NCBI GenBank assembly: GCA_964344595.1
Contig: CAYFNV010000017.1
Location: forward strand, 3,660-67,659
Length of the DNA: 64,000 nucleotides
Reading direction: 5' to 3'
Source: an uncultured Nitrospina sp.
Lineage (GTDB): Bacteria > Nitrospinota > Nitrospinia > Nitrospinales > VA-1
Shown: positions 3,729-32,700 of the stretch, piece by piece
How the letters are laid out: every line of letters starts with the position of its first letter
Position numbering within the stretch: the first letter of the stretch is position 1
Position numbers and translations under genes: made by a program
Notes under the pieces: generated by a model
What the model was told of the DNA's origin: nothing
The model's input: only the letters and a program-made list of their open reading frames with translations
The model's database searches: none

Positions 3729-4544
3729 GTGTCGAAATATAAAAATCGCGGGTTTCTGGTCCTGCTGACCCTTTTATGTATTTCTGCCTGCTCATCGGTA
3801 CCTGAAAATCCACAGGTAGGAGAAGAACGGGTTTTCAGAATCACTCATGCTGATTCTGCGGGTCGTATCGTCTCGGAAATTTGGACCCGGCGAAAGCTGG
3901 AATCTCAAGGAGTACGGGAAATCTCCAGTGAATATTTTGACCGGGCCATGCACACAAGGGATTCACGGTTTTCAACTATCTCCTTTGCCAGCTTGTTAAA
4001 GAAGTTTGCCATGAAACGCGGAGAGGACTCGGTGCTTTTAAATTGCTTTGATGACTATCAGGGCATTTTATCTCTTAATGATATTTACCGGTATGATTTG
4101 CGATTGGCCACAAGAATTCAATTCTCGGGTTCAAAGCCTGATTGGTTAAACCCTCTACTCATCCTGGTGCCTGATGGGAAACGCCCGCCTTTTCAGGAAC
4201 GGTTCATGACGGCCAACATTCGCGAGTTGAAGTTTGTCCGGCTCAAGAGTTATTACGCTCCTTTAGACAAAGCAGCAGGGTTTTCCAAAAGAGCCCGGGA
4301 GGGATTAAAAGTTTTTAAAGACAACTGTTTGTTCTGTCACTCTTTGAAAGGCAGGGGAGGCAATAAGGGTGTACGTCTGCTAGAGACCTACAGGCTTACA
4401 AATATGGCAGACCAAAGAAAGTTTATAACCGATTTTAAAAACTTCCACCATAAAGACAATGCTGATAAACAGGATGTCGAACAGTTTGTCACTCAGCAAA
4501 AACTTGAACGGGTCATCGACTACTTAAAGAACTTTAAGGGATAG
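3729..4544 (+). CDS. Putative c-type cytochrome lipoprotein (single CXXCH)
   Basis: Heme-binding motif CLFCH at the C-terminal third. The ORF track starts at 3588, but an in-frame GTG at 3729 gives a canonical lipoprotein signal (SKYKNRGFLVLLTLLCISAC, lipobox ISAC). The start remains uncertain (3588/3624/3729). Confidence 0.6.
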   Translation: MSKYKNRGFLVLLTLLCISACSSVPENPQVGEERVFRITHADSAGRIVSEIWTRRKLESQGVREISSEYFDRAMHTRDSRFSTISFASLLKKFAMKRGEDSVLLNCFDDYQGILSLNDIYRYDLRLATRIQFSGSKPDWLNPLLILVPDGKRPPFQERFMTANIRELKFVRLKSYYAPLDKAAGFSKRAREGLKVFKDNCLFCHSLKGRGGNKGVRLLETYRLTNMADQRKFITDFKNFHHKDNADKQDVEQFVTQQKLERVIDYLKNFKG

Positions 4545-4546
4545 GG

Positions 4547-5323
4547 TCAGGCTTTTGGGGCCAGGATTCCATTTGAATTAAGGAACTGCTTGAAAGTCGG
4601 GTCGTTGAGGATGTGTGGTGAGATCGGCATATTGGCTGGCAATCCTTCAAGGTTGGGACCGAACATTCTCTTCACGTTTTCAGGGAGCGCGATACCTTTT
4701 GATTTGAAGAAGGTCAATACCCCCGGCTCAAAAAGAATATGCGGGGGAAGATTCTCAATTTTAATTTGAGTATTGGCAACCGGTGCAGGAACTGCCGCGG
4801 CTGGGACCGGTGCAGGAGCCGGAGCTGAACGGAAACGAGGTTGACGTTGAACTGCTGCCCTGGTTTGCCGTGGCGCCCGGGCAGTTTCTGCCACTTCAAC
4901 ATTCCTTCCACCTGATAAAAGCCAGACCCTGCTGGTTGCCAGGTTGTCTGTCCAGACTTCTACACGGCTGAATCCTTTTAAAAGTTTGCGAACCGCTGTT
5001 TCCCAGTCATTAGCCTGAATACGGGCACTAAACGGAACGGTTTCAAGGGAAGGATCAACGGAAAATAAAATGCCGGTTTCGTCCTGAATATTTTTTAATA
5101 CATCCAGCAGAGTCAGGTCCTCAAACTGGAGACTGATCCCTTCAGGTTCTGTTTTGGATTTGTATACGGGATTGGGCGGAATACTTGGAGCGGGAGTGGG
5201 AACAACTTCAGGAGCCGGGAGTTGTTTCTGTTCTTTCAAATCAAGAAACCGCGCATCGGCAGACACCTGCCACAACACGAAACCGGTGCCAAGAACGATC
5301 CCTGTCTGGATAAAACGCTTCAT
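4547..5323 (-). CDS. Secreted hypothetical protein, STN/secretin-N0-like domain, Pro/Ala-rich linker, C-terminal LPPHIL module (paralogue of 858..1553)
   Basis: GGAGGA RBS upstream of ATG 5323 and an N-terminal signal peptide (MKRFIQTGIVLGTGFVLWQVSA). Contains ISLQFEDLTLLDVLKNIQDETGILF...IQANDWETAVRKLL...VEVWTDNLATSRVWLL, a PAPAPVPAAAVPAPV linker, and LPPHILFEPGVL. Confidence 0.65.
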   Translation of the reverse strand: MKRFIQTGIVLGTGFVLWQVSADARFLDLKEQKQLPAPEVVPTPAPSIPPNPVYKSKTEPEGISLQFEDLTLLDVLKNIQDETGILFSVDPSLETVPFSARIQANDWETAVRKLLKGFSRVEVWTDNLATSRVWLLSGGRNVEVAETARAPRQTRAAVQRQPRFRSAPAPAPVPAAAVPAPVANTQIKIENLPPHILFEPGVLTFFKSKGIALPENVKRMFGPNLEGLPANMPISPHILNDPTFKQFLNSNGILAPKA

Positions 5324-5475
5324 CCCGATCCTCCACTACCGAGAAAATTTTCTAATCCGAATTATAGACAAAAACCACTAAAAAAGATAGCTATATCAGG
5401 TCATTGATAATGGATCATTAGCAAAACAACAGATAAATCGCCATTTAAGCCTGCGCTTTTTAGTATCCCAAAAGG

Positions 5476-5508
5476 TGAAAAAAGTATTGAAAGCCGGGGC
5501 CAATACTT
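5476..5508 (-). terminator. Rho-independent terminator downstream of the first collagen-like gene
   Basis: An 8-bp perfect stem (AAGTATTG 5482-5489 / CAATACTT 5501-5508) is followed on the minus strand by a T-run (plus-strand A-run 5478-5481). Confidence 0.6.
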
Positions 5509-5538
5509 CTTCAAGTATTGACTCTGGCTTTTCAATAT

Positions 5539-7566
5539 TCAGTTGGTCTTATACCAGACTCCCAGATCGACAATTTGTGGATTGTAAATCCCACAGAAGT
5601 CGTCTCTGCATTGGCTGGTACCATAAGTCCCGACCCGGCATTGATAGCTATAGCCGATGTTGCAATAGGTATTATTGCCTATTGTTCCACCATACCCGGA
5701 GAGGAAGTCATGGCCTCCTCCAAAGGTGGGGCCGTAGCTACTGTTGTCGTACTGTTGGTGGATGCTTGAATGTTGCCCCGGTGAACTGTGTTTAAAGTTG
5801 TTGGTCAGTGAAAACAGGAAACCGTTTGAGTTCCCGGTATAGTTACCTGCACTCGTCCAAGGCACAGCCGCGTAGCCACCAATTTTCCTGCCAGTGCTCA
5901 AAGTTGCAACCATGAAAGTCTCCCCCTTATTGTCGCACTGGTTGTGGAAGGTTGAAGTGTTGGATCCATCGGTACTGAGACGGTAACACTCTGTCCACTG
6001 TTGACCTGGTGTCCCAAGCCAGGTGTTGATCTGATCGACATCTGACTGGGTGAGTAATGGCGGTGGAGGCGGCGGTGTCGCCGTGTCAAAGTCATCCACA
6101 TATTCAAGCCCAGAAGGTAATACTAATGTGTCATCCGTGATTCCCAGCATGACTGCACGGTATTGTAAGCTGCTAATGTTTTGCGGTCGTGCTGAACCGG
6201 AAACGAAGATGACGGTGCTGGTTTCTTCAGCAGGTATAACAAGGTTAACGATATGTTTATGGGTCGCCTGACTATTAGTGTGTTGCCAAACATCCGCACC
6301 GTTAACCGCAATGCTGGCTTTTTCACCCCACCCTGAATATGCAGTCTGGTGAGTATGCACTGTCCAGGTTATATCGGACGATGTAGTATTCTTGACCCTG
6401 AAAAGAGCGGCAGCATGCTTTCCGGTAGTGGATGAATACATAGTATACTGCTCAGCCCAAACCAGGGCATTTTTGTCCGCATATCCCTTTTTGGTGAAAA
6501 GGTTGCGTATCTTATCAAAATTTTGACCCATCATACCTGCAGTGCCATTTGAATCACCCCATACATTAGGAGCTACACCGCCAAAAAGATTGCTGTCGTT
6601 ATTAGCATACCAGCCACCTGTTTGATCATAATCCATCCAGACTGCCCAGCGATAGATAGCACCTGTGTGGGAATCTCCTGGGTCACCTTTAGGACCTTGG
6701 GGGCCTGTATCACCTTTTGGTCCTTGAGGACCTGTCGCACCCGTCGCACCGGTTGCTCCTGCTAATCCGGTTGCGCCGGTTGCACCCGTGTCACCTTTTG
6801 GACCCTGTGGTCCCGTTGCGCCCGTTGCACCCGTGTCACCTTTTGGACCCTGTGGTCCCGTCGCGCCGGTTGCACCGGTATTACCTTTAGGTCCTTGTGG
6901 TCCCGTTGCGCCCGTTGCACCCGTGTCACCTTTAGGTCCCTGTGGTCCCGTTGCACCAACTGCACCGGTATCACCTTTTGGACCCTGTGGTCCCGTTGCG
7001 CCGGTTGCACCCGTGTCACCTTGCGGTCCCTGTGGCCCGGTTGCGCCAACTGCACCGGTATCACCTTTCGGTCCCTGTGGTCCGGTAGCGCCCGTTGCGC
7101 CGGTGTCACCCTTTGGTCCCTGTGGCCCGGTTGCACCGACTGCACCGGTGTCACCCTGCGGACCCTGTGGTCCGGTTGCACCGACTGCACCCGTGTCACC
7201 CTGCGGTCCCTGTGGTCCGGTAGCGCCTGTTGCACCTGTGTCACCCTGCGGTCCCTGAGGACCCGTTGCGCCAACTGCACCGGTTGGACCTTGTGGACCG
7301 GTATCGCCTTTTGGTCCGGGGGTCAGTTCAATATTGGCGAGTTCCTGTTCCAAGGCATCAATCTCTACCTGGAGAGCGTTGACCTTTTGTCGAAGTCCTC
7401 TTTTGCGCCGGTCATCGTCATCATCCTTATCTTTGTCTTTATCTTTCTTTTTTTGCGCAAAGGCTTGGCTGGAAAATACAGGGTCAGCAATCAACACATT
7501 ACTGACCAGATTAAAGATAAAAAACGAGACTGTGAATAGCGATACTGCTACAGGTAGGCGGCGCAT
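5539..7566 (-). CDS. Secreted collagen-like triple-helix repeat protein with beta-rich middle domain and C-terminal TLDc-like domain (675 aa)
   Basis: GGGGAG RBS. MRR plus a long hydrophobic leader ending AFA-QKK, then a K/D-rich stretch and a heptad segment [25 protein letters not shown]. Uninterrupted Gly-X-Y runs from aa 84 to 298. A PPPPPP linker follows. The C-terminus carries [14 protein letters not shown]...IGGYAAVPW...NGFLFSL...[11 protein letters not shown]...VDLGVWY. Confidence 0.9.
6673..7317 (-). repeat. Collagen Gly-X-Y coding tract built from about 11 tandem near-identical 45-bp (15-aa) units
   Basis: The unit GDTGA(T/V)GATGPQGP(Q/K) repeats back to back. The 45-nt periodicity is visible directly, e.g. 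6788-6832 vs 6833-6877. Confidence 0.9.
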
Positions 7567-7872
7567 AATATTTCTCCCCGATAAGAATTTAAAAGGCGCT
7601 TTATATAGTGGAAAGAGTTTGAATTTTTACTCTTCCTATCATGCGTTATGTGCTTATTTTCAGAAATCGTATTGTTAAGAAAAAATAGGGAGTACTAAAT
7701 CCTACTAAATATAAAGAAAAGCAATTTCAACAAGCGTAAATATATACTGTAAATATGCAGAAAACAACCCTGGACAACTCTAAATTTAGTAGATGTTGCT
7801 GAATTGTAACAATCTACAGAAAGTATATTGGAAAAAGGATATTTGTTTGGAAATTAATACATCAAGACTCTT

Positions 7873-8811
7873 TCAGGTTTTATTTTTTCCCATGGCCGCA
7901 TGGATATTTTTAAAGATTGATAGCCCTGATTTTGATCCGGGTTCAAGGTCCAGATAAGTGCGGGCAGCTGTTTCCGCCTGTTCAAACTTTTTCAGATAAT
8001 AAAAGACATAGGCTTTATTGAGGTAAAGCCTTGCAGGAATTTTATTCTGGGAAGGATGGTTCTTATATAACTGTTCGGCTTTATCATAAACTTCTTTGGC
8101 TTTCAAAAAATTTCCCATTCTCATATAGACTCCACCGAGGTTGAGATGGTTGACAGGGAAAGAAGGGTCAAGACGAATCGCTTCTTTGTAGGCGGAGACA
8201 GCTGCTGGCATATTTCCTCGTCGACTGTAAATGATCCCCATCTTGCTTTGAGCTTGAGACATAAATTTGGGAGAGGGGTTGGACTGCATCAATCCCTGAA
8301 TACTTTCAAACGCCTTATCAAAGTTTAACTCCATTAAATAATGGTGGCTGAGGTTTTGCCATGCACGGGTCTTTCCCGGTGCCTTATTAACCGTGTCCTG
8401 CCATAGAGCGATGTTTGACCGGTGCGTTGCGTTCCGGTCGATCAGCAAAACGGTATGAAGTGCCAGAATCGTGAGAAGCCCAACGGTTACTGTATGGCGA
8501 ATGGTTTTAGATTGAGAGACGAATAAAGAAGTCGCACCTGAAGCCATGAGCAAAAAAACTCCAAAAGACGGGATGTATAAGTTTCGTTCGCTCAGCAGGT
8601 TCAGGTCAATCGATTTCCCAAGACGGGGTATAAAACTGTTGCTAGGTGCTATGGTTAACAAAAACCATAAACTGCAAAAGACAATCCATTTTGCATGCCT
8701 TGGAAAACACCTGGCGGCACCCACCGTTAGAATAATTATTACCAGAAGTGGCCATGCCATCAATGCAGGTTGGGGGAAGAAGCCTTCAGGGAAGTTATAG
8801 TCAAACGTCAA
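7873..8811 (-). CDS. TMTC-like membrane/TPR protein, C-terminal half (4 TM segments + TPR repeats); probably the distal part of a split gene
   Basis: Hydrophobic N-terminal segments with SERNLYIPSFGVFLL (the family motif aeRxlYlPsiG), followed by TPR-like repeats (AWQNLSHHYLMELNFDKAFESIQ, GIIYSRRGNMPAAVSAYKEAIRLDP, LGGVYMRMGNFLKAKEVYDKA). The TTG start is only the first start codon after a stop in this frame. Confidence 0.65.
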   Translation of the reverse strand: MTFDYNFPEGFFPQPALMAWPLLVIIILTVGAARCFPRHAKWIVFCSLWFLLTIAPSNSFIPRLGKSIDLNLLSERNLYIPSFGVFLLMASGATSLFVSQSKTIRHTVTVGLLTILALHTVLLIDRNATHRSNIALWQDTVNKAPGKTRAWQNLSHHYLMELNFDKAFESIQGLMQSNPSPKFMSQAQSKMGIIYSRRGNMPAAVSAYKEAIRLDPSFPVNHLNLGGVYMRMGNFLKAKEVYDKAEQLYKNHPSQNKIPARLYLNKAYVFYYLKKFEQAETAARTYLDLEPGSKSGLSIFKNIHAAMGKNKT

Positions 8812-8846
8812 CCCTATGGGAAATAGTAGTAAGTGCAGTCCATGCC

Positions 8847-9623
8847 CTATGATTGGCTTTGTTGCAGGGCATGATAAAAATCAATTTTTCCCCACCATTT
8901 AATAACCATCGTTGTTATAACCGGAACATTTAAAATGGCAATCGTTCCACAGGCAAGCAGGGGAAGATAAAAGTAATGGAAACGGGTTTTACGGTCACAC
9001 CATTGATCCCCATTCATGAAACAGAAATCGTATAACAGGTAAATGGCAGGGAGGGAGAGGCTGACCTCTTTACTGAAAAACGCCGCTATGAATAGAAGAA
9101 TACAAATTAAATAGCAAATCAGGCGTGATGCTTTAGTCCTTTCCCGAAGCCCCGCGATTATAAAAAACAAAAACGATGAGAAATAGAACAACCCCGCCAG
9201 CCCTGAAGTCCGCCCTGATATATAAGACACGGTTTCGGTGTGGACCGGGCTCAATGCAAAGAACAAGGTGGTGGTCACGGAAATGGGAGTGGCCACCTTC
9301 CTCTCCCACTCAGTTCCCCTTTGAAGGGTTATATGAACAATGAAAAAGATGATGAGGCTTGTTAAAAAATGCAGGGAGATATTGAACACGTGGTAGCCGA
9401 ACGGGTCCAGTTGTCCCAGTTTCTTGTTGATGGCAAAGCTCAGGAAAAACAGGTGCCGGTATTTGGGGGGGAAGGGATCGAAAAACTTCTCATCGCTTTG
9501 GGAAATGACCGTGCTGTCATCAAGGGTAAAGGGAGATTTTAGCGTGTTGCCATAAGCCAGCGCGACAACCAGCAGCAATAGGGCACCAAATGCAACAACC
9601 TGCCTGCGGGATAAGTCCTCCAT
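8847..9623 (-). CDS. TMTC-like / DUF1736-type (GT-C, PMT-related) membrane protein, N-terminal half
   Basis: YGNTLKSPFTLDDSTVI, GYHVFNISLHFLTSL, LSPVHTETVSYISGRTSGLAGLFYF and FSKEVSLSLPAIYLL match the N-terminal membrane domain of bacterial TMTC-like TPR proteins. The ORF ends 35 nt before the next ORF, which is in another frame. Confidence 0.65.
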   Translation of the reverse strand: MEDLSRRQVVAFGALLLLVVALAYGNTLKSPFTLDDSTVISQSDEKFFDPFPPKYRHLFFLSFAINKKLGQLDPFGYHVFNISLHFLTSLIIFFIVHITLQRGTEWERKVATPISVTTTLFFALSPVHTETVSYISGRTSGLAGLFYFSSFLFFIIAGLRERTKASRLICYLICILLFIAAFFSKEVSLSLPAIYLLYDFCFMNGDQWCDRKTRFHYFYLPLLACGTIAILNVPVITTMVIKWWGKIDFYHALQQSQS

Positions 9624-9680
9624 AGATATGATTCTACCAGCCAGTGTGGCGTTGGGCTTAATTTAAAAAGTCTTTTGCGC

Positions 9681-9717
9681 AAATAAAAATGGCCCACGGA
9701 GATGTACCGTGGGCCAT
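9681..9717 (-). terminator. Rho-independent terminator downstream of the second collagen-like gene
   Basis: An 11-bp perfect stem (ATGGCCCACGG 9689-9699 / CCGTGGGCCAT 9707-9717) with a 7-nt loop, followed on the minus strand by TTTTATTT. Confidence 0.7.
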
Positions 9718-9747
9718 CACTATAAAAAAGATTTAGTCGGTAAGCCT

Positions 9748-11097
9748 TTAAAAGTTATTTATACAAATCGCAAAGACTCTATAAAACTTTACCAAACCTG
9801 ATTTAGGTGTAAAACGAACTGTCCACGATTGGGGATCGCTGGGGCTTGAAATAATACCCGAGGGGCCGCTAAAATGAACGGTTATATTTGCATCCCCACC
9901 GTGATTAATACCCCCGCCTGTTACTACTTTACCAGCAGGACAATCAGCTCTTACCTCATGAGTGGATCCATCTGACAATGTAGTAGATTGTACAAATACT
10001 TGTTCCCATCCCAGGGATGGAATTATAGGAACCTCTGGAACAGCCGTGAAGTCAAATGATGAAACGCCATTGCTGTTCAATAGGTGGAAGCGGTGAGCAC
10101 CTTGACCGCTGGCAATAATACTAATTGGGACACGCACAGTAATGGTGTTAATGCTGGCTACCAATACATTCCCGCCGCCCGAAGCCTGTTCCGAATGGGT
10201 GTTCAACAGGGTATTGAAATGCGTCACATTGGGTGCTGTGACTCCATCAACAGAAAGTCCAGAGCCATCAATCAGGAACGAAATGTGAGAAGCAGGTAAT
10301 GGAACACAGGTCTCGTTGCCAACCGAGTCGGTGGTACAACTGAGTTCAGGAGGCAGTTGGATGATACGCCTGATCTCAACACCATCTATTTCATCGTTCC
10401 CACCATCAGAACCTGCCGGCCCTTGAGGTCCTTGTGGACCTGTTGCACCCGTGTCACCTTGAATTCCCTGCAGGCCTTGCGGACCCGTTGCACCGGTTGG
10501 ACCTTGCGGACCTTGTGGTCCTGCCGGGCCTGCCAGTCCGGTATCGCCTGGATCGCCCTTGTCACCTTTATCACCTTGGGCACCGTCGGCACCTGCTGGA
10601 CCTGTTTTACCTTGAGGTCCTGCCGGGCCTGCCGGTCCGGTATCGCCTGGATCGCCCTTATCACCTTTATCACCTTGGGCACCGTCGGCACCTGCTGGAC
10701 CTGTTTTACCCTGAGGTCCTGCCGGGCCTGCCGGTCCGGTATCACCTGGGTCGCCCTTGTCACCTTTGGCTCCGTCAGCACCCGGTAAACCTTGCGGACC
10801 GGGGGTCAGTTCAATATCTGCGATTTCCTGTCCCAGGGCATCAACCTCTTCCTCAAGAGCATTGACTTTTTGCCGAAGTCCGTTGCTGCGCCGGCTATCA
10901 TCTTTATCCTTATCGTCATCACGTTTTCTTTTTTTCTTTTTCTTCGCTTTCTTTTTTAGTTTGATTTTTGCGTCCTGTTTTTTCTGTGCAAAGGCCATAC
11001 TAGAAAAAGTGGGATCAGCAGTCAGCATATTGCTGACCAGACTTAAAAGGAAGAATAAAACCGTGAACAGTGCGATTGATAATTGTTGGCGGCGCAT
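9748..11097 (-). CDS. Secreted collagen-like triple-helix repeat protein with IPT/TIG-like and Cys-bracketed beta C-terminal domains (449 aa)
   Basis: GGAGAAAGG RBS. The leader is [40 protein letters not shown], followed by a poly-K/D stretch and [25 protein letters not shown]. Gly-X-Y runs from aa 100 to 233. The C-terminal ~215 aa is unrelated to that of 5539..7566. Confidence 0.9.
10510..10795 (-). repeat. About 2.7 tandem copies of a 99-bp (33-aa) unit inside the collagen tract
   Basis: TCCTGCCGGGCC recurs at 10519, 10618 and 10717 with near-identical intervening sequence. The protein unit is [33 protein letters not shown]. Confidence 0.85.
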
Positions 11098-11450
11098 AAC
11101 CTTTCTCCGTTTTAAATAATTGTAGATCGACTCAGAAAATTTAGTTTATGTCGGTTGATTTAGTTATGGTGAAAGTATTTGTTAGCAATTAATTTCAAAT
11201 TTGGCAATACCTTAAACAAGGTAAACTGCTATAAAAAAAGGAGAAATTTTATTTTTTCCCGTGAAAACTTTTGATAAAGCGATAGTTTTTGTTTGAGTAG
11301 GGGGATAAATATTTTTTTGGTTTTCCTTTGGTAAGGTGGGGTTTCCCCGATATTTATTGATTATTGGTTTTTGCTTTCCGACCGGGCAGGTGCCGTGCTA
11401 TGGTGAACGCTTCTGAATAACATGTTTAATTTGATAACCAGGAACTTTTA

Positions 11451-11846
11451 ATGTCTTTACCGGTTGTAGCTGTATTTGCCCTGGGCACAGGGGTAGAACT
11501 TTATGGTTTGAAGTATGTGAGTGATGTGATCAGCATTCTCAACACGGTATCCTTAATCATGTTCACTTTTCTGGTGGGTATTGTTGTCAGCCGCAGTTAC
11601 GGTGCTGAGGTCTTTGAAAAAATGCAGAGGCAGTTGAAGTCACGGGAAGTCCCCGGCAACGAGGCCCTGAACGGTGCGGTGATGGGGGTTGCCAGTATGT
11701 TACTCATAACTCCGGGAGTTGTGACGGACATAATTGGTCTCCTGATCATGACTCCGCTCACTCGCGGGCTGTTCATAAAAATTGCTGCGGATATCACACG
11801 AGATAGAATTCAATCCGGTCAACCCTACTTCTTCTTCAAGGACTAA
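11451..11846 (+). CDS. fxsA: FxsA family membrane protein (UPF0716)
   Basis: 131 aa, with N-terminal TM helices and the family hallmark LLITPGVVTDIIGLLIMTPLTRG. Confidence 0.7.
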   Translation: MSLPVVAVFALGTGVELYGLKYVSDVISILNTVSLIMFTFLVGIVVSRSYGAEVFEKMQRQLKSREVPGNEALNGAVMGVASMLLITPGVVTDIIGLLIMTPLTRGLFIKIAADITRDRIQSGQPYFFFKD

Positions 11847-12000
11847 GCACCGGGCGTGAAGCCAATGAGCAACAGGCGAGCCGCATATTGCATGAGATGC
11901 ATGAGAGATGGTAAATCACCCCAGCCCCTCTTTGAAATAGAGGGGTCCATTAACGCTTCTCCTTTCTGGAAGAGAGCAACCTGATAGCTCTCAATGATAA

Positions 12001-12717
12001 ATGCGATCTTTATTTTTTCCTCCACGAAATCTCCGTGACGAACTGCTGGATCTGGACGAAGCTCCTTATGAGGAGGTCCGTGACAGCTTGAGGGATGTTG
12101 CCACCGTCAACCGCTATTTGAGTGGTTACCGGGTTCTTCTACACCATGTAGAGCCATTTTTAAAATCCCATAAACCGGATCGTCCGTTCAGGGTTTTGGA
12201 TGCGGCCACAGGTTCCGCTGACCAGCCCGTGGCACTGGTCAGGCTGGCGCGCCGTCTGGGTGTGCCTGTTCATATAACTGCTATTGATATCAATGCCAAA
12301 ATGCTGAAACTGGCGAGGGAGGAAGTAGTCCTTTATCCTGAAATCAAACTGGTGCAGGGCGACATTCTTTCATTGCCGTTTCGGGATGAGAGTTTTGACC
12401 TTGCGGTGAATTCTTTATCTCTCCATCATTTTAGTTGGGAGAAGGCGGTGAAGGTTTTAAGGTCGATATATAAGGCCGGGAAATTGGGAATGGTGGTGAA
12501 CGATCTGCACAGGAGCCGAATAGCGCATGCGGCGATATTTTTATTGACGAGAATTTTTACGCGCAACAGGCTGACTCGCTACGATGCGCCGGTTTCTGTG
12601 ATGAATGCATTTACCTCGAAAGAGTTCCGTGAACTGGCTCAACAGGCGGAAATAGAACCTTATGAAGTCCACCGCCATTTTCCCTACCGCATCGCTTTGC
12701 TTGGGCGCAAAAGATGA
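12001..12717 (+). CDS. Class I SAM-dependent methyltransferase
   Basis: Motif I-like VLDAATGSADQP, a DIN acidic loop and VNSLSLHHF (post-II/III). The stop overlaps the next start (ATGA at 12714-12717). Confidence 0.8.
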   Translation: MRSLFFPPRNLRDELLDLDEAPYEEVRDSLRDVATVNRYLSGYRVLLHHVEPFLKSHKPDRPFRVLDAATGSADQPVALVRLARRLGVPVHITAIDINAKMLKLAREEVVLYPEIKLVQGDILSLPFRDESFDLAVNSLSLHHFSWEKAVKVLRSIYKAGKLGMVVNDLHRSRIAHAAIFLLTRIFTRNRLTRYDAPVSVMNAFTSKEFRELAQQAEIEPYEVHRHFPYRIALLGRKR

Positions 12718-13985
12718 ACTCCTTTGATGTTGTCGTTATAGGGGGTGGTCCGGCGGGATGCGCCATGGCACTGGACCTCAACCGTCGTGGTTATCGCGTT
12801 GCTCTTTGTGATCAGGCAAAATTCCCACGTGACAAGGTGTGCGGAGAGTTTGTCAGTCCTGGTGCCGACCCCATTCTTGCTCAGCTGGGTGTCCTTGATG
12901 CCATTGAGGCCTTGACTCCAAAGCGCCTTAAAGGTGTGGCGATCTCTTCTTATGAAAGCGAGGAATTGGGGATCGAATATCCTTTTTCTTCGGAAACCGG
13001 CTTGAGGCCTACCAGTTTATCAGTGCCTAGATATCAGTTGGATGAATTGTTTTTAAGACAAGTTCAAAATTCGGGTGTGAAAGTATTTGAACAACATAAG
13101 GTGACAGGTTTTTTGTTTTCTGAGGGTTGTGTTGCAGGGGTTGAAGGGTGGGATGGAAATAAAACATCGTTTTCACTGAACAGCAAAATGGTGGTGGATG
13201 CAGGAGGACGCAATGCAGTTTCTCTTCGCAAGTTCGGTTTGAAGCGTGAACCCAGGGGAAATTCTAAACTTGCTTTTTCTGCGCACTGGCAGGGTGTGTG
13301 TGTCCCGGAAGATTATTGTTATATGCATGTCAGTCAACCGGGTTATACGGGTATATCTTCTGTGGGAAACGGTCGGACCAATGTGGTTCTTGTGGTGGAC
13401 AGGTCTTCAGTTGGAGGCGAAAAGCCGGAAACTTTTTATCATCGTGTTTTAATGAAAAATTCCCGGCGAATTGGAATGCTATCGGACGGAGAACAGATTG
13501 AACCTGTACGTTCTGTTGAGTCTTTGGCGTTTGCGGTCAAGCCTGTTCCTTGTGGCGGGCTGGTTCTGGTTGGCGATGCAACCGGTTTTATCGATCCATT
13601 TACAGGTGAAGGTATTTATCTGTCGTTACGAAGTGCCCAGCTTGCGGGAGAGGTGATTCAAAATGGGTTTAAGTGTTCAGACTTTTCCAGAAAATTTCTT
13701 TCGGCTTATGACAAGCAACGGCAAAAGGAGTTTGGGGATAAGTTTTTATTGAGCCGTATTCTCCAGGTGCTGATATATAACCGTTTTTTTTGTGATCAGG
13801 TTTTTAGAATACTTACTACTGACCGTGCCCTTGCTGAATCTCTGGTTGGGGTTATTGGAGACATCATGCCAGCCAGAAAAGTGGTTTGCATGAAATTTTT
13901 GTCCCAGCTTCTGGCTGGTGCCTTGAAAAGAAAATCAAAGTCAGAGCCATTAGTTGCTTCTAAGGATAGTCTGGGCGGCTTCTAG
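12714..13985 (+). CDS. FAD-dependent oxidoreductase, geranylgeranyl reductase family
   Basis: N-terminal dinucleotide fold DVVVIGGGPAGCAMA, CGEFVSP, and the C-terminal GDATGFIDPFTGEGI motif typical of GGR/FixC-like flavoproteins. Confidence 0.85.
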   Translation: MNSFDVVVIGGGPAGCAMALDLNRRGYRVALCDQAKFPRDKVCGEFVSPGADPILAQLGVLDAIEALTPKRLKGVAISSYESEELGIEYPFSSETGLRPTSLSVPRYQLDELFLRQVQNSGVKVFEQHKVTGFLFSEGCVAGVEGWDGNKTSFSLNSKMVVDAGGRNAVSLRKFGLKREPRGNSKLAFSAHWQGVCVPEDYCYMHVSQPGYTGISSVGNGRTNVVLVVDRSSVGGEKPETFYHRVLMKNSRRIGMLSDGEQIEPVRSVESLAFAVKPVPCGGLVLVGDATGFIDPFTGEGIYLSLRSAQLAGEVIQNGFKCSDFSRKFLSAYDKQRQKEFGDKFLLSRILQVLIYNRFFCDQVFRILTTDRALAESLVGVIGDIMPARKVVCMKFLSQLLAGALKRKSKSEPLVASKDSLGGF

Positions 13986-14810
13986 TCCTTCTTTCGTATT
14001 TTCGATGAGGATTTCCAGTTCATCGGAGTCCAACTCCAGTTTGTCGAGAACACCGTATTCAAGCGGAGCTGTGTCTTCCGGGACAATTCCATTGGAGAAT
14101 CCATTCTGGTTGGCAAGCAGGTTGGCAGTGGTGAGGAGGTGGGCAATATTTTTCACATCAGCATTGTGGTCGGGTGTATCGTGATGAATGCGAATGCTTT
14201 CAACCAAGCCGGGTGAAACCGGCCACCATTTTTCGATGAACCGCGTTCCCAGTTCAGCATGGGTGATCCCGAAAGTTCCCTCTTCATTTTCTGCCAGGGT
14301 CAATTCGGATGATTTTATTTGCTCAAGAAACTCGTTGTATCTTTCCGGAATCAGGTGATCAAAAACTACAATTCCAACATCGTGCATCAATCCGCATAGG
14401 TAAGCGAATTCGATTTCTTCATGAGGTACTTTTACCATGTGTGCCAATGAACGTGTGAGGTAGGCGACTCCCAGCGAATGTGTCCAGAAGTCGAACTGGT
14501 TGAAGCTTTTCGACTTGTTAAACAGTCCCGGGAGTTTTACGGTATAAGCCATATCCAGAACCATTTTCACACCCAGTCTCATAACCGCATCATTCATGTC
14601 TTCGACATCTTCACGCCCTCCTCCAAACAGGACGCTGTTTGCGAGTTTGATCAGTCGACCTGACAACACGGGTTCTGATTCAATAATGCCAGAGACTTCC
14701 AGAATATCGCACTCTGGATCGTTGATTTTTCTTTCCAGGTTCATCAGGATTTCGGGAAGGGGCGGAAGATCTCCCTTCCCTTCAATCAGGTCGATCAGCT
14801 TTTCTCTCAT
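13950..14810 (-). CDS. HDOD domain signalling protein
   Basis: LPPLPEILMNLERKINDP...GIIESEPVLSGRLIKLANS...AVMRLG and CGLMHDVGIVVF...HAELG are HDOD hallmarks. Confidence 0.85.
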   Translation of the reverse strand: MREKLIDLIEGKGDLPPLPEILMNLERKINDPECDILEVSGIIESEPVLSGRLIKLANSVLFGGGREDVEDMNDAVMRLGVKMVLDMAYTVKLPGLFNKSKSFNQFDFWTHSLGVAYLTRSLAHMVKVPHEEIEFAYLCGLMHDVGIVVFDHLIPERYNEFLEQIKSSELTLAENEEGTFGITHAELGTRFIEKWWPVSPGLVESIRIHHDTPDHNADVKNIAHLLTTANLLANQNGFSNGIVPEDTAPLEYGVLDKLELDSDELEILIENTKEGLEAAQTILRSN

Positions 14811-14843
14811 GAGGTCATCGTAGATGTGTAGAGTGACTATTGA

Positions 14844-15071
14844 TTAGCCCTTTGACTCCTCATAGAGGCTTAAAATTTGCTCCATACGATCCTTGAGGCT
14901 CAACTTTTGTTTCTGGTGTTTTTTCTTTTCAACCTCTTGTTCGGGAGTGATGATCTTCGCTTTATTAAGAGCATCAACTTTTATTTTAAGAAGGGTGTGT
15001 TCTTCATAAAGCTCACGAAATTCTGGGTTTTCCTGTTTGAGTTTTTCAAGCAAAGCGGGATTAATGTCCAT
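14844..15071 (-). CDS. DUF465 (YdcH-like) small coiled-coil protein
   Basis: 75 aa. FRELYEEHTLLKIKVDALN....TPEQEVEKKKHQKQKLSLKDRM matches the DUF465 pattern. Confidence 0.65.
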   Translation of the reverse strand: MDINPALLEKLKQENPEFRELYEEHTLLKIKVDALNKAKIITPEQEVEKKKHQKQKLSLKDRMEQILSLYEESKG

Positions 15072-15768
15072 GCTTCACAACCTCCTTGTTAAGAATATTA
15101 CGGTTTAATTCTGCTTCTGATTTCCTGACATAATGAATGGTCAAGGCATCCAGATCAAAACAGGGTTTATTACTGGATTGATTGAATGCTATTTGAGCCG
15201 CGCTTGCGGCAATAGACTGGTTCTTGACTCGAATTTTATTTATAAACTTGTCTCCCAATTGACAAGAAAAGATATCTTTATAAGTTTCCAGTCCTCCGCC
15301 TAAAAAAATAGTTGGCTCATTAATTGTAGAACATAATTCCTGCGCGGAGACAGCCCGGTCTGGGGTTTCTCTGGACAAATGTTCCCCTGTATATTTAAAA
15401 CTTGCTGTATAAACCTCTTTTTTTCTGGCATCCAGAACCGGGCAGATTGGCTGGGGAACGGGTTTGACCAGATTTGCATAAGCTTCCAGTGTATTGATTC
15501 CCCAAAATGGCTTTTCTGTAGCCAAGACCAGGCCTTTTACCAAGCTAACGCCAACCCGGAGTCCTGTAAATGAACCGGGACCTGTTGTGACGCAGAATGC
15601 ATCCACTTTTTCCAATCCACCTTCTAATTTTTCCAAAACCTCATCCACCATAACAAGAAACTGATCTGAGTACATTGAAGAACTCAATGACTCGGCAATT
15701 ATGCGCTCACCATCAAGAAGAGCTACACTTCCTTTTGGTGTCGAGGCATCAATACCCAATATAATCAT
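15061..15768 (-). CDS. tsaB: tRNA N6-threonylcarbamoyladenosine biosynthesis protein TsaB
   Basis: MIILGIDASTPKGSVALL...VTTGPGSFTGLRVGVS is the YeaZ/TsaB signature. Length is 235 aa. Confidence 0.85.
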   Translation of the reverse strand: MIILGIDASTPKGSVALLDGERIIAESLSSSMYSDQFLVMVDEVLEKLEGGLEKVDAFCVTTGPGSFTGLRVGVSLVKGLVLATEKPFWGINTLEAYANLVKPVPQPICPVLDARKKEVYTASFKYTGEHLSRETPDRAVSAQELCSTINEPTIFLGGGLETYKDIFSCQLGDKFINKIRVKNQSIAASAAQIAFNQSSNKPCFDLDALTIHYVRKSEAELNRNILNKEVVKHGH

Positions 15769-16313
15769 TGTTTCATATTTGGGAAAGGATATTGGAATTC
15801 TAAGGAAAGGAGCATTGGACTACTCCAGAAAGTTTAGTGTAAAGATAGGGGATAGGTAGGGGAAAGTCAATGGGAAAGGGGCTTTTTTAAGCTTCAATAA
15901 GGGACCGATTTAGCATGGTATTTTCCCTTAAGATTCATAGGGTTAAAAATATAACAAGACTGAGGATCAGATCATGAAATGTTTTCAAGTATTTGAAAAA
16001 TTTACATTAATTGACGCCTCTCATACTTTGGGTGATAATTCATGAGGCTTGAATGGCTAAGGAAGGTTTTTTTGAAAAGACTGCTATAGCAGGTGGTTGG
16101 TAAGAGTTTTTCATTGCAAAAACAGTGACTTGAAAGTAAGGTTTGATAAATTTGAATAGTGTTGAATTTGATTGTTGGCAATGGAAGGTTATTATTCAAC
16201 CTATTGAATTTAACTATTCCTGACTTTTAAATAATTCCAACCGGATAGCAGTTATTATTTCTGAACTTTTTAAGAACCCGTCTGATCATGCGTTCAATGC
16301 ACCCAGGGCATGG

Positions 16314-16949
16314 TTGCCATTGATACGGCATTTTTCCTATTACCTTACCCGGCTTTTAATAAAAACACCGATAGTGCCAAATCAGGTTACCACGTTGTCT
16401 TTATTATTTGGGTTGGCCTCTGGAGCAGCATGTTTGAAAGGGACTTATAGCTATACACTTCTAGGCGCGTTTTTTTTGCTCATATGCTATGTGCTCGATA
16501 ATTGTGATGGAGAAATTGCCCGCTTAAAAAATATGTGTAGCCATTTTGGCATGAGGTACGACACGTTTGTAGATTGGGTTGTCCACACTGTTTTCTTTGT
16601 TTGTCTGGGCTGGGGTGCGACTGCGGCCATGGGACAGGAATGGTGGCTGTGGGTGGGTATCGTAACAGGGCTGGGGGGCACCATTAATTATGGTATAGAA
16701 CTATATCAAAACAAAACCCAGCTTCATGCCAGCCAATTGCCTGAAAAAGAAACGATGAAAAAAGATGACGATACGGATATAGATCGGTTTGTATTGAACG
16801 CCCGTATGGTACGTAGTGACTTTTGTTTCATCGTGTTGTTTTTAAGCTTGGGAGGGGTGCTTTGGTATCTTCTTCTTCCCGCTGCTATTGGTGCTCAGGC
16901 TTATTGGTGTCTGCAATTTACCCGAAGCGCACGTCGCTGGCACGTATAA
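16314..16949 (+). CDS. CDP-alcohol phosphatidyltransferase family protein (small, 211 aa)
   Basis: Exact family motif DG-x2-AR-x8-G-x3-D-x3-D in DGEIARLKNMCSHFGMRYDTFVD, with multiple TM segments. The TTG start is uncertain. Confidence 0.8.
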   Translation: MPLIRHFSYYLTRLLIKTPIVPNQVTTLSLLFGLASGAACLKGTYSYTLLGAFFLLICYVLDNCDGEIARLKNMCSHFGMRYDTFVDWVVHTVFFVCLGWGATAAMGQEWWLWVGIVTGLGGTINYGIELYQNKTQLHASQLPEKETMKKDDDTDIDRFVLNARMVRSDFCFIVLFLSLGGVLWYLLLPAAIGAQAYWCLQFTRSARRWHV

Positions 16950-16954
16950 CAATC

Positions 16955-17962
16955 ATGAAACCACTAAAGTTATTGTATCTGCTGATAGGAGTAGGTCTGT
17001 TTGGATTTGTGTTGAACCATACAGACCTTCCTTTGGTTTGGTCTCAGTTAAATAAAATAGGATGGGGCATTTTGGTGGTGTTGGCTGTTTATAAAATTGC
17101 TTTTATTGTGGATACTTTTGCATGGCAGATTACTTTACCCAGTACACAGCTCACTAAAAAATGGTTGTATAATCTTTGGAAGGTTCGCATGGTTGGAGCT
17201 GCTTTCGGTAAAATGTTGCCTTTAAGTGCTTTTGGAGGAGCACCCATAAAAGGCTTTGTTCTTAAACGCTATTATGGAATTCAATACAGAGAAGGAACAG
17301 CATCATTGATTCTGGCAGAATCCACTCATTTGATTTCCATGGTTTTGTTTATGGCTACGGGTGTTTTTCTTATTCTGCTTGATTCCAACCTTCCAGGAAG
17401 TTTCCATTTTTTCGCGGTCATTAGTTTAAGTGCTATCGCTATCGGGATTTTTTTGTTCTATCTTGTCCAACGCTACAAGATTACTTCGTTAACTGGTACG
17501 TGGCTTAGCCAGCGAAAGTTTGGGCAATGGTTGGAAAAATTCATCCATCATATCCACGATATGGATGAGAGGTTGGTTCAGTTTTATACTCGTGACAGAA
17601 GTCGTTTTCTTTCAGCGTCATTTTTGAATCTTATTAACTGGTTTTTAGGTGCACTGGAAATATTTGTCATTTTTTATTTTTTAGGCAACCCTATTACAAT
17701 TGTTGAGGCCATAACTCTGGAAACACTTGTTGAGTTGGTCAGGGCAGGAACATTTTTCATCCCTGCTACTTTGGGTAGTCAGGAGGCAGCCTTTATGGTT
17801 GCAACGGGAGCGATAGCCGGGCAGACAACGTTGGGTGTTGCCGCCTCTTTAATGAGGCGTGTTCGGGAAGTTGTTTGGTTGGCATGGGGTTTCATTATAG
17901 GTCTGGAATATTCACAAAAGCCTTTCGACCTTGCAGAAGCTGCACAGAAAGATTCAGATTAA
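16955..17962 (+). CDS. Flippase-like / LPG_synthase_TM (UPF0104, TIGR00374-like) integral membrane protein
   Basis: The ORF track starts at 16823 and overlaps the previous gene. The ATG at 16955 gives MKPLKLLYLLIGVGLFGFVL and sits directly after the upstream stop. The protein is polytopic, with FGGAPIKGFVLKRYYGI and a pattern typical of the family. Confidence 0.65.
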   Translation: MKPLKLLYLLIGVGLFGFVLNHTDLPLVWSQLNKIGWGILVVLAVYKIAFIVDTFAWQITLPSTQLTKKWLYNLWKVRMVGAAFGKMLPLSAFGGAPIKGFVLKRYYGIQYREGTASLILAESTHLISMVLFMATGVFLILLDSNLPGSFHFFAVISLSAIAIGIFLFYLVQRYKITSLTGTWLSQRKFGQWLEKFIHHIHDMDERLVQFYTRDRSRFLSASFLNLINWFLGALEIFVIFYFLGNPITIVEAITLETLVELVRAGTFFIPATLGSQEAAFMVATGAIAGQTTLGVAASLMRRVREVVWLAWGFIIGLEYSQKPFDLAEAAQKDSD

Positions 17963-29728: not shown

Positions 29729-32700
29729 CTAAGAATCTTTGTTTAATTTGTCCAGTATTTTTGAAATTCCCTCGTCATCAAACTGACCTGCTAATTTTTT
29801 TAATTCAGCGACAAGTCCTCTGCCACCAGGATCAACGTGCTCTATTTTCTCATAAAACCTGTCAAGCTCCAGCAGCATTCCTCTTTGGAGGTATTCCTTC
29901 ATTTCAATAATGAGAGAAGAGGGAAGTTGTATTTTTAAGTAATCGTTGACTCCCGATTCTGCGTGATCTTTTTCAATCAAAACCTGAAGAGAATCTAGGA
30001 CCAGCTCCAGCTCTTTGTGAAATTCTTTAAATAACTTTGTGGGAATTTTCTTTTTCCCATTGCGCAGTGCTTCTTCCAAGGGTTCAGAAGCTTTTGCTAA
30101 ATCTTTTGCTCCAATCGTAGCGGCAACTCCTTTAATGGTATGTACTAATCTTTGCGCAAGCTTTTTATTGCCTTTTTCTATTGCACTTTGAATATCTGAT
30201 TTTGCGTTTAAATTATTCTGGCAGAATTTAATCAGCATTTTCCGATAGAGATCCTCATTGCCATTGACTCGGGCTAGACCATCTTGAATATCAATTTCAG
30301 GGAGTTCGGGGAATTCGGTTTGAGGTTCATTAACATGTGGCGAATTGGAATTTTTTGTGGGTGGGATCCACTTTATAAGGCTTTTATACAATTCTTTGGG
30401 GTCAATGGGTTTTCCCACATAATCGTTCATTCCTGAGTCCAGACATTTTTCCCGATCACCCTGCATGGCATTGGCAGTCATGGCTATTATTGGAAGATCT
30501 TTGAACCTAACATCTTTTCTGATAGCCTTGGTGGCTTGAAATCCGTCCATTTCCGGCATTTGAATATCCATGAGAACACCATCGAATTGTAATGTGTTGA
30601 CACGATCTACTGCTTTTTTTCCATTGCTTGCCACGGTGACAACCATGCCTACTTCTTCAAGCAGTTCAATGGCAATTTCTTGGTTGATTTCGTTGTCCTC
30701 AACAAGTAAAACTCGTGCGCCTTTGATATTTTTCAAGGCTTTGCTTTCTTGTGAATCCAGTTCTAACTGAAAAGATTTTCTCGGTACCTTTCGCTCAATT
30801 TTTTTCCCAAAGACTTCCATGATGGTTTCAAGCATGACGGAAGTATTCATGGGTTTAACCAGAAATGCATCCAAACCTGCTTTTATTGCCTGGTTTGCTA
30901 CCTCTTCACGACCATAAGCCGTGAGCATGATGATCTTGGGGATATGTTTTAGTTTAGGATGATTCTTGATAATCTCGGATGCCCGGATACCGTTCATCTC
31001 TGGCATTTGCCAGTCCATGATTACAAGGTCAAACGGTTTTTTAGAGTCGGCGGACTCAATCATGGAAATGCATTCGGCCCCGGAAGTTGCCATGGAAACA
31101 TCAAAGGAAAGAGATGACAAAGCGTGGTCCAATACTTCTCGTGCGGATTCATTATCATCCACTATAAGCACATTTTTTCCTCTAAGATCCTCGGAAATAA
31201 TTAATGCGCTTTCTTTTTCACCTTCTTCTTTCTTAAAGTTTGCAGTAAAAAAGAAACTGCTTCCTTTGCCGGGTTCGCTTTCAACCCAGATTTCCCCTTC
31301 CATCATTTCAACAAGTTTTTTACAGATTGTGAGCCCCAGCCCTGTCCCTCCATACTTTCGAGTCGTGGAAGAATCTGCTTGGCTGAAAGATTGAAATAAC
31401 CTACTAATTTGTTCCTCATTGAGTCCAATACCTGTATCCCTTACTTCAAACTTAAGTTGAATCTCATCCCTTTCTTCCTTTAATGATATGATTCGAACAA
31501 TAATCTCACCATGCTCCGTAAACTTCACCGCGTTATTAGTTAAATTTGTCAATATTTGACCTAAGCGTAGCGGATCTCCTATAAGATGGCGTGGAACAGT
31601 TCTACCTACAGAGAATAAAACCTCCAAACCCTTTTCCTGGGCCTTCATGGTAACCAATGTGGCAAGGTGGTCCAGCACTTCATCGAGATGAAAACTGGTT
31701 TTCTCAATGGTCATTTTTCCGGCTTCTATTTTGGAAAAATCAAGGATGTCGTTGATAATGCCGAGCAGGGCCTGGCTCGAAACCTGAATTTTGTCTATGT
31801 AGTTTAGTTGCTTGGATGTCAATTCGGTCTTTTTTACTAAGTGACTCATCCCTATAATTGCATTCATAGGAGTCCTGATTTCATGGCTCATGTTGGCAAG
31901 AAAATCACCTTTAGATTGGTTTGCAAACTCAGCCTCTCTCTGTGCCTGTTCAAGTTCTTTGGTTCTTTCTTCAACTTTCAGTTCAAGGTTTTGTCTTTCT
32001 TCAGCCAATGCCGCTTCAACTTTCTTTTCTTCGGTGATATCACGGCTTGTAGTGGCAATTGCCACAATTTTTTCATCCTCATCTTTCAATAATGAAAAGG
32101 TAAGTAGTACCGGGCTGAGCTTTTGTTTGCGATCCCAGCGTACTCCTTCAATATTGTTGAGAGATTCTCCACGTTTGCATCTTTCCAACAATTCATCTGC
32201 TTGTTTGTGTTTTTCAGGAGGGACCAGGCTTTTAATAGGTTTGGAAAGTAGTTCTTCTCGAGAGTAACCATAGGCCTTTTCAGCAGCTCTGTTTAAATCA
32301 ATAATGATACCATTAGAATCCTCAATAATTATTGGATCCGAAGCATCCTCAAAGACTTTTGCAATCCGGCTTTTTTCCTGGGTAACTTTTAGCATTTCCT
32401 GTAGCCTTAACTGGTTTGCTGCTGTATTCAGGGAAATAGCTACCCCTTCTGCTGTGATCCTGATTAGTTCAAGTTGACGATCTAAAAACTTCTCTATCGA
32501 TCCCAGAACTAGAACTCCCAAAGCTTCATTTTCGTAGATAAGAGGGTATATAAATATGTTTCTTGGTTTTATGACACCAACCCCTGCATTAATTTCCATG
32601 TCGTTGTTTTCAGCATCTATATCCTGCAACAAAATTTCCTTCTGGGACTTTGCAGCTTGCCCCACAAGACCTTCTCCGAAGTTAAAAGATTTGTTGTTTA

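Follow-up and report, generated by a model that had tools for sequence, protein, structure and literature searches.

Two putative stalk-and-head collagen-like proteins with a shared N-terminal module in an uncultured Nitrospina species

A stretch of 64,000 nucleotides (nt) from the genome of an uncultured Nitrospina sp. (GenBank assembly GCA_964344595.1, contig CAYFNV010000017.1, positions 3,660 to 67,659 of the forward strand), referred to here as the window, encodes two collagen-like proteins, p1 of 675 amino acids (aa) and p2 of 449 aa. Both begin with the same N-terminal module of a hydrophobic leader, a charged spacer and a candidate coiled coil, continue into an uninterrupted tract of Gly-X-Y (GXY) triplets, and end in head domains that are unrelated to each other. 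On balance, p1 and p2 appear to be secreted homotrimeric stalk-and-head binding proteins, acting as surface proteins or adhesins, and they belong to a family whose complete N-terminal module was found only in Nitrospinota.

Organization of the two genes

A preliminary description of this DNA had reported two open reading frames (ORFs) of 675 and 449 codons, and their coordinates proved exact. The following features were assigned to them (positions are those of the window).

5539-7566, minus strand: p1, collagen-like protein of 675 aa (ORF; Pfam Collagen and TLD matches; identical protein on contig L021)
7456-7566, minus strand: p1 leader, aa 1-37, a predicted signal peptide consisting of MRR and a long hydrophobic stretch ending in AFA
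7399-7455, minus strand: p1 spacer, aa 38-56, a K/D/R-rich polyampholyte read from the sequence
7318-7398, minus strand: p1 candidate coiled coil, aa 57-83, with a heptad pattern, ending in IELTP and abutting the first Gly
6670-7317, minus strand: p1 collagen tract, aa 84-299, 72 GXY by triplet count
6085-6669, minus strand: p1 middle head domain, aa 300-494, a beta-sandwich with a helical insert (AlphaFold2 model, Foldseek)
6058-6084, minus strand: p1 proline linker (PPPPPP) between the middle domain and the TLDc domain
5554-6057, minus strand: p1 TLDc domain, aa 504-671, with 6 Cys (PF07534, E 2.1e-22)
5478-5537, minus strand: terminator-like hairpin and U-run 3' of p1 (predicted fold -24.9 kcal/mol, z -5.6)
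9748-11097, minus strand: p2, collagen-like protein of 449 aa (ORF; Pfam Collagen match)
10987-11097, minus strand: p2 leader, aa 1-37, by comparison of the two modules
10882-10986, minus strand: p2 spacer, aa 38-72, K/D/R-rich in sequence and longer than that of p1
10801-10881, minus strand: p2 candidate coiled coil, aa 73-99, with a heptad pattern, ending in IELTP
10396-10800, minus strand: p2 collagen tract, aa 100-234, 45 GXY by triplet count
9751-10395, minus strand: p2 head, aa 235-449, two all-beta domains in the predicted model
9688-9718, minus strand: intrinsic terminator 3' of p2, a 12-bp stem with 8 GC pairs and a U-run (predicted fold -25.0 kcal/mol, z -3.9)

Each gene has a Shine-Dalgarno-like GGAG motif on the 5' side of its start and a strong hairpin with a T-run on its 3' side, in agreement with the earlier proposal that each carries its own ribosome-binding site and a clean terminator. 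The upstream DNA of p1 has no similarity to that of p2, which rules out a common promoter or 5' region for the two genes.

Both collagen tracts are uninterrupted, as first described, although the residue ranges given at that time were off by one residue. The Pfam Collagen family (PF01391) matches p1 with an E value of 1.6e-32 and p2 with an E value of 5.7e-21, and both proteins have the long unbroken (Gly-X-Y)n tract by which bacterial collagen-like proteins are recognized. The p1 stalk consists of 45-nt repeats (11.3 copies, 84% matches, 6766-7272) and has Thr at 36 of its 72 Y positions and Pro at 29 of its 72 X positions; the p2 stalk is richer in charged triplets (GDK, GDT, GKT) and contains a 99-nt tandem repeat (2.6 copies, 95% matches, 10510-10767). 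Both compositions are of kinds known from hydroxyproline-free bacterial collagens, and at 0.286 nm per residue the calculated rod lengths are approximately 62 nm for p1 and 39 nm for p2.

A 135-kb metagenome contig of the European Nucleotide Archive (L021, PRJEB17505) is identical to positions 4001-17000 of the window except for one indel, and encodes a protein identical to p1. The indel of 99 nt (33 aa) lies inside the p2 collagen tract and corresponds to exactly one repeat unit, so the length of the p2 stalk differs by whole repeat units between assemblies; the p2 versions of L021 and P0116 have one unit fewer than that of the window. This difference may be a real polymorphism. Exact-sequence look-ups of the p1 and p2 proteins returned no match even though an identical p1 is encoded on L021, and the protein index must therefore be incomplete for these proteins.

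The regions C-terminal to the two stalks are unrelated by BLASTP, as had been suspected. The C-terminal domain of p1, which had been likened to TLDc, scores 80.3 bits against the Pfam TLD model (PF07534, cut-off 24.5), and p2 has no such domain. The TLDc domain of p1 has weak matches in the Protein Data Bank (PDB) to the TLDc domain of NCOA7, and domains of its type are found after collagen tracts elsewhere too, in Nitrospina, in Desulfobacteraceae and in unbinned marine contigs. The score of p1 against the model of PEP-CTERM TLD proteins (NF038124) is 84 bits, below the cut-off of 100, and a scan of the p1 sequence found neither a PEP motif nor a C-terminal transmembrane segment. No C1q/TNF-like domain was found in p1 or p2 with Pfam.

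The region between the stalk and the TLDc domain of p1 had been described only as beta-rich; the predicted fold is indeed a beta-sandwich, and the domain represents a widespread family with some likeness to carbohydrate-binding modules (CBM). This middle domain (aa 300-494) has no Pfam match, but approximately 60 homologues were found in a wide range of marine bacteria, among them SAR86 and Neolewinella, often behind a collagen tract or beside P-domain or CBM modules. Its AlphaFold2 model, built with an alignment of the homologues, has a predicted local distance difference test score (pLDDT) of 95.5, and its best Foldseek matches in the PDB are all sugar-binding (PA14, CBM35, CBM6 and CBM36, E approximately 3e-4, at low TM-scores); glycan binding is a reasonable guess. 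Precomputed annotations assign PF26696 to three homologues of this domain (P0030, P0042 and P0072); a Pfam scan of P0030 and P0042 returned no family.

The p2 head was modelled as two all-beta domains with moderate confidence (pLDDT 75.8). The label IPT/TIG that had been attached to it is not supported: there is no Pfam match at E of 1 or below, the best Foldseek match in the PDB has an E value of 0.018, and among viral structures (BFVD) one IPT/TIG protein appears at rank 17 with an E value of 0.022. The Cys-bracketed beta domain that had been recognized in p2 is borne out, and both domains of the head turn out to be bracketed (C254/C264 and C386/C445). Only five close homologues of this head were found, of which the sole named one is from Nitrospinota, and there is weak likeness to tail-fibre tips and H-type lectin domains (BFVD, E 7e-4 to 3e-3, TM-score approximately 0.3). 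The paired cysteines in the heads of both p1 and p2 fit an extracytoplasmic location, as does an adjacent DsbA-like gene on another contig (L005).

The N-terminal module and its family

The modules that precede the collagen tracts of p1 and p2 are 65-68% identical, BLASTP across module and stalk gives an E value of 1e-58, and tblastn finds only these two copies of the module in the window. The alignment at the DNA level that had been seen by eye is real, extending over gene positions 113-260 and 163-308 (78.5% identity, 149 nt, E 1.6e-30), and the aligning stretch corresponds to the coiled-coil regions. The leaders have 68% nucleotide identity, and 15 of their 27 identical residues are encoded by different codons, which indicates that the conservation of the leader is due to purifying selection. 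Recent gene conversion as the source of the likeness between the modules is ruled out by the high synonymous divergence.

In an alignment of 36 relatives, the only invariant or nearly invariant positions of the leader are an Ala at -3 (36/36) and an Ala at -1 (35/36), with a bulky Phe or Tyr at -2 and Gln, Lys or Asp at +1. This pattern is, as far as sequence can tell, the signature of signal peptidase I. Two relatives (P0158 and P0164) have a canonical signal peptide of 24 aa instead, which ends in the same SSVAFA|KK. Thus p1 and p2 have the sequence pattern of an export signal (MRR, a hydrophobic core and the invariant A-x-A), and because the short signal peptides end at the same AFA, the leader is probably a signal peptide cleaved after A37 (AFA|Q). 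A long, Phe-rich hydrophobic core such as that of this leader suggests co-translational targeting of the signal recognition particle type, which would suit a self-associating passenger.

The spacer that follows is rich in Lys and Asp and varies in length within the family. In the coiled-coil segment, the fraction of hydrophobic residues among the 36 relatives is 0.97-1.0 at positions 58, 62, 65, 72, 76 and 79 (p1 numbering) and 0.76 at position 69; the spacing of 4-3-4-3-4-3 is that of the a and d positions of approximately 3.5 heptads before the first Gly, to which the segment is joined by a fixed four-residue step, ELTP. One relative of 125 aa (P0139) has the family leader and K/D-rich spacer but no collagen tract, and continues instead into a helical region rich in Lys and Glu; the leader module is therefore not strictly bound to collagen.

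An exhaustive HMMER search of 1.84e9 representative proteins with a profile of the module found 56 protein clusters at E of 1e-3 or below, 33 of them at 1e-10 or below, which answers the earlier suggestion to look for homologues beyond p1 and p2. All 38 full-length members that were scanned match Pfam Collagen, with tracts of 12-67 triplets, and the C-termini of the family fall into approximately 16 unrelated head classes by BLAST. The heads of these 38 members that Pfam recognizes include DUF1554 (5), CTHRC1_C (4), TLD (3), Endostatin (2), MopE-type Cys repeats (2), Kelch (1), TSP1 (1) and also HYR; a right-handed beta-helix head occurs in the family as well. A C-terminal domain of approximately 190 aa (...RLYCFQQ) that matches DUF1554 was observed in P0123, P0126, P0128, P0136, P0138, P0157, P0159 and L011, and the domain of this size has a match to Pfam Endostatin (PF06482) in two members (E 4e-7).

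That heads are exchanged on a constant base, as first proposed, is further supported by the slot between fxsA and a gene for a membrane/TPR protein, in which the window has p2, with its two beta domains, and a syntenic contig of another species (L015) has a Kelch-headed member. At the slot beside the fxsA/ubiE-like genes in a third genome (NIOZ-UU48), the copy begins with a leader almost the same as the p1 leader; its contig ends within the gene, so that the head is not covered.

All named relatives of p1 and p2 are from metagenome-assembled genomes (MAGs) of Nitrospinae, Nitrospina or Nitrospinaceae. When one genome per GTDB species (185,579 genomes) was scanned with patterns derived from a subset of eight sequences, the full-length module (residues 1-82) was found in Nitrospinota MAGs only, the highest number of copies in any one MAG being four. 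The helix ending in (N/T)IELTPGPQG was found also in Actinomycetota, Spirochaetales, Elusimicrobiota, Scalindua and another Nitrospinales MAG (L014, L016, L017, L018, L020), where it stands behind ordinary signal peptides or other N-termini, and in large fibre-like proteins of viral contigs in IMG/VR (L023-L025), sometimes twice per protein. No full module was found in 2.9 million viral contigs, in which the match is limited to residues 61-82.

Neither Pfam nor NCBIfam has a family for the N-terminal module, and literature searches that covered collagen in Nitrospina, bacterial collagen-like proteins with TLDc, TLDc and collagen-like proteins with PEP-CTERM, and collagen-like proteins of marine MAGs found no description of this family. 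The preliminary view that the module is not a described family therefore stands. Its novelty has to be divided: judged by distribution, the leader and charged spacer are specific to the lineage, whereas the junction of the coiled coil with the collagen tract (IELTPGPQG), which other phyla and viral contigs share, is a widely used building block.

Part of the reason that the family has not been described is that short-read assemblies break or frameshift at GXY repeats. Syntenic contigs of related MAGs break off within the collagen gene (L001-L004, L006, L013; P0001-P0007), 19 of the 56 clusters are fragments of less than 200 aa, frameshifts affect some clusters, and many database entries are cut short or out of frame in the GXY tract. 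The family is systematically damaged in such assemblies.

Neighbouring genes

The genes that flank p1 and p2 include fxsA and genes for a UbiE-like methyltransferase, a flavin adenine dinucleotide-dependent oxidoreductase, an HDOD protein, a TsaD-family protein, a radical SAM protein and a cytochrome c, with mutL, nuoLMN and a glycogen synthase gene farther away, and these flanks are syntenic across several Nitrospinota MAGs. Two genes next to p1 and p2 may be related to their function.

7873-9623, minus strand: multi-pass membrane and TPR protein gene between p1 and p2, frameshifted into ORFs of 258 aa and 312 aa
4547-5323, minus strand: orf258, a secreted-looking ORF of 258 aa downstream of p1, with homology in aa 62-150

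The membrane/TPR gene is intact on L015 (7431-9164), where it encodes 577 aa, and the same frameshift is present on the independent contig L021. A homologue or distant relative of this gene lies beside collagen-like genes at three loci (the window, L015 and L012), and its product is a possible accessory factor for the collagen-like proteins. Its membrane part has no match in Pfam, NCBIfam or the PDB; a resemblance to GT-C glycosyltransferases (PMT/TMTC-like) that was suspected by eye in the present analysis found no sequence support in these three databases.

On contig L012 (Nitrospina sp. SI048_bin14), a family member with a beta-helix head is followed after 27 nt by the gene of a signal peptidase I (family S26; TIGR02227, 115 bits) at 6800-7573, and the N-terminal domain of this peptidase is homologous to residues 62-150 of orf258. 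This N-terminal domain of approximately 90 aa is unusual for a signal peptidase I, and occurs apart from the peptidase in orf258 and in a paralogue at 858-1598 of the window. An STN-like domain suspected here in orf258 has no Pfam match. Judging from position and homology, orf258 might be a partner of p1. The signal peptidase of L012 and the membrane/TPR gene, each observed in one to three instances, are leads toward dedicated processing factors.

The remainder of the window has ordinary chromosomal content, including mutL, nuoLMN and genes for a glycogen synthase, a Cu-ATPase and a CLC channel. A hybrid sensor kinase of 1601 aa with an HBM sensor, HAMP, GAF, PAS and HisKA/HATPase domains, two receiver domains and an Hpt domain is encoded at 29729-34534 on the minus strand.

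Relation to known proteins and proposed function

By sequence, p1 and p2 belong to the broad class of bacterial collagen-like proteins, but they are not members of its curated families: they score 155.2 and 85.6 bits against the Lcl model (NF046116, cut-off 500), in the coiled-coil/collagen region only, and 101-133 bits against the Scl1 and Scl2 models (NF038330 and NF038329), the cut-offs of which are 325-400. A sequence scan found no LPXTG motif in either protein.

In the order of their parts, the closest analogues are the class A scavenger receptors and the membrane collagens of animals (with collectin-12, and collagens XIII, XVII, XXIII and XXV), which also have a hydrophobic N-terminus, a spacer, a coiled coil, a collagen rod and a C-terminal recognition head, and which fold from the N- to the C-terminus after nucleation by the coiled coil. 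There is no homology to these animal proteins outside the GXY repeats, and the hydrophobic segment of p1 and p2, unlike theirs, is probably cleaved. The layouts of collagens XV and XVIII (endostatin) and of CTHRC1 are echoed by relatives such as P0123 and P0126 and not by p1 and p2 themselves, and these family members are bacterial, much shorter and different in their N-termini. The Bacillus protein BclA and other proteins of the C1q type also display a C-terminal globular head on a collagen stalk, in BclA as the nap of the surface, and have Thr-rich GXT triplets; the stalk of BclA is glycosylated. Trimerization of BclA is driven from the C-terminal head, whereas the candidate nucleator of p1 and p2 is the N-terminal coiled coil.

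Among bacterial proteins, Scl1 and Scl2 of Streptococcus pyogenes have an N-terminal trimerization domain directly before the collagen-like domain, to which the candidate coiled coil of p1 and p2 may correspond. In Scl2 this domain adjoins the collagen domain, and hydroxyproline is not needed for the stability of bacterial collagens (PMC4066190). However, the variable domain of Scl1 and Scl2 is N-terminal and their LPXTG anchor is C-terminal, whereas the N-terminus of p1 and p2 is constant and the C-terminus variable. Functionally, the closest analogue would be Lcl of Legionella pneumophila, another Gram-negative protein with a signal sequence, a domain of tandem GXY repeats and a unique C-terminal domain. 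Lcl takes part in adhesion and biofilm formation, forms triple helices and large supramolecular complexes, and has a polymorphic number of repeats that tunes adhesion (PMC6460258), which may be compared to the difference of one repeat unit between two assemblies of p2. In contrast to p1 and p2, Lcl lacks the K/D-rich spacer, the coiled-coil/IELTPGP junction and TLDc or CBM-like heads, and is a single gene rather than a family with many heads.

From these comparisons we infer a route of export and assembly, including cleavage, trimer state, folding direction, extracellular location and ligand binding. The very hydrophobic leader of 37 aa would direct the nascent chain to the Sec translocon, probably co-translationally, a route by which the coiled coil and collagen, which tend to self-associate, would not be exposed to the cytoplasm, and signal peptidase I would cut after the invariant A-x-A (AFA|Q). 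The mature N-terminus would be a flexible K/D-rich polyampholyte, which may be a spacer or may hold the protein electrostatically to the envelope. In the most economical interpretation, the coiled coil of 3.5 heptads ending in IELTP would set three chains in register and nucleate the zippering of the hydroxyproline-free GXY tract from the N- to the C-terminus into a rigid rod of the calculated length; nucleation by the coiled coil is favoured because it abuts the GXY tract and because N-terminal trimerization domains are known in bacterial collagens. The rod would display three copies of the head, which is the CBM-like beta-sandwich and disulfide-rich TLDc domain in p1 and the pair of Cys-bracketed beta domains in p2. 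The heads would be cassettes exchanged on the constant base to provide the cell with varied binding specificities at its surface or outside it, which might be used to adhere to particles, glycans or partner cells or to build a surface coat, and the length of the stalk would vary through the copy number of its tandem repeats.

Several points weigh against secreted binding proteins of this kind. The hydrophobic stretch of the leader, approximately 24 residues, is long enough for a membrane anchor, and its conservation is unusually high for a signal peptide. No route of translocation across the outer membrane is evident in the window. With respect to the heads, we know of no established biochemical activity of TLDc domains, TM-scores are low (0.24-0.38) for the CBM-like fold matches of the p1 middle domain, and no structure in the PDB matches the p2 head significantly (best E 0.018). 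The 99-nt difference in the p2 stalk may be due to collapse of repeats in a short-read assembly.

The length of the hydrophobic stretch, the MRR before it and its conservation between paralogues under purifying selection would all be expected if the leader were an uncleaved signal anchor that made p1 and p2 type II proteins of the inner membrane, with stalk and head in the periplasm; the Actinomycetota relative that shares the junction (L014) has a cytoplasmic N-terminal tail and a transmembrane segment before its coiled coil. We regard this topology as unlikely for p1 and p2, because an anchor has no need of invariant small residues at -3 and -1 or of a charged residue at +1, because the long leader is replaced in P0158 and P0164 by a standard signal peptide with the same AFA end, and because rods of 39-62 nm are longer than the typical periplasm of Gram-negative bacteria.

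If p1 and p2 are exported, they might serve as a structural matrix, sheath or coat and not as adhesins, the rods self-associating and the heads acting to cap, fold or cross-link them. Matrix-type domains (endostatin-like, CTHRC1_C and TSP1) occur in the relatives, and the TLDc domain, which in eukaryotic proteins is linked to resistance to oxidative stress, might act in redox protection at the surface; the large complexes of Lcl are a precedent for assembly of this kind (PMC6460258). However, neither fibril-forming periodicity nor cross-link motifs were identified in p1 and p2, and the extreme diversity of heads, which are moreover replaced at a fixed locus, is more readily reconciled with diversified binding than with a uniform lattice, so that a purely structural role seems rather improbable.

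A more elaborate and more doubtful reading is that the leader and K/D-rich spacer are more than a signal peptide and constitute a sorting and anchoring module specific to Nitrospinota, an abundant group of marine nitrite oxidizers, with dedicated accessory genes, and that the proteins form a programmable coat of collagen fibrils in which heads are swapped at fixed loci. The accessory factors might be the specialized signal peptidase I and the membrane/TPR protein, which might glycosylate the Thr-rich stalk. If this were true, the family would be a bacterial counterpart of the extracellular-matrix toolkit of animals, with its endostatin-like, CTHRC1-like, TSP1 and TLDc heads.

The IELTPGPQG junction in large fibre-like proteins of viral contigs and the weak likeness of the p2 head to tail-fibre tips and H-type lectin domains recall phage proteins, among which collagen-like side-tail proteins are known: the prophage proteins EPclA-D of enterohaemorrhagic Escherichia coli combine a trimeric coiled coil, a collagen triple helix and globular ends (PMC3368898). 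It is nevertheless very improbable that p1 and p2 are tail-fibre-like genes of a phage or prophage, or recent acquisitions from one. The phage proteins have no Sec leader, which both p1 and p2 possess, and no charged spacer, and they differ in the order of their domains and in the sequence of the coiled coil; p1 and p2 are located among chromosomal housekeeping genes in syntenic order, and the G+C content of their region is not deviant. A prophage origin was rejected on the basis of this housekeeping context together with the restriction of the viral matches to residues 61-82 of the module.

That the two ORFs are artefacts or pseudogenes of a repetitive GC-rich tract is scarcely credible: although such tracts yield long spurious ORFs on both strands (extra overlapping ORFs of this kind are listed within the repeats of p1 and p2, and are the usual by-products of GXY-coding repeats), 19 of the 56 relatives are fragments or frameshifted, and the adjacent membrane/TPR gene is frameshifted, conserved non-repetitive domains, whose folds are predicted with high confidence, lie next to the 72 and 45 in-frame triplets, an identical p1 is present on L021, the leader is under purifying selection, and both genes have Shine-Dalgarno motifs and terminators.

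What is new in these proteins is the Nitrospinota-specific base of leader and spacer, the extent of the family, the wide range of its heads, including domains of the animal-matrix type, and the replacement of heads at a fixed locus. Nitrospinota are the main nitrite oxidizers of the ocean, and to our knowledge almost nothing is known about their cell surface. The family, poorly represented in databases owing to short-read breaks and frameshifts at GXY repeats, provides a defined and searchable set of candidate surface or extracellular proteins with a constant base and many heads, which could have roles in attachment to particles, glycans or partner cells. Its members would be natural examples of hydroxyproline-free collagen that is putatively nucleated by a coiled coil, which is relevant to makers of recombinant collagen, and bacterial collagens that end in endostatin-like, CTHRC1-like, TSP1 and TLDc domains bear on the origin of matrix-type domain combinations.

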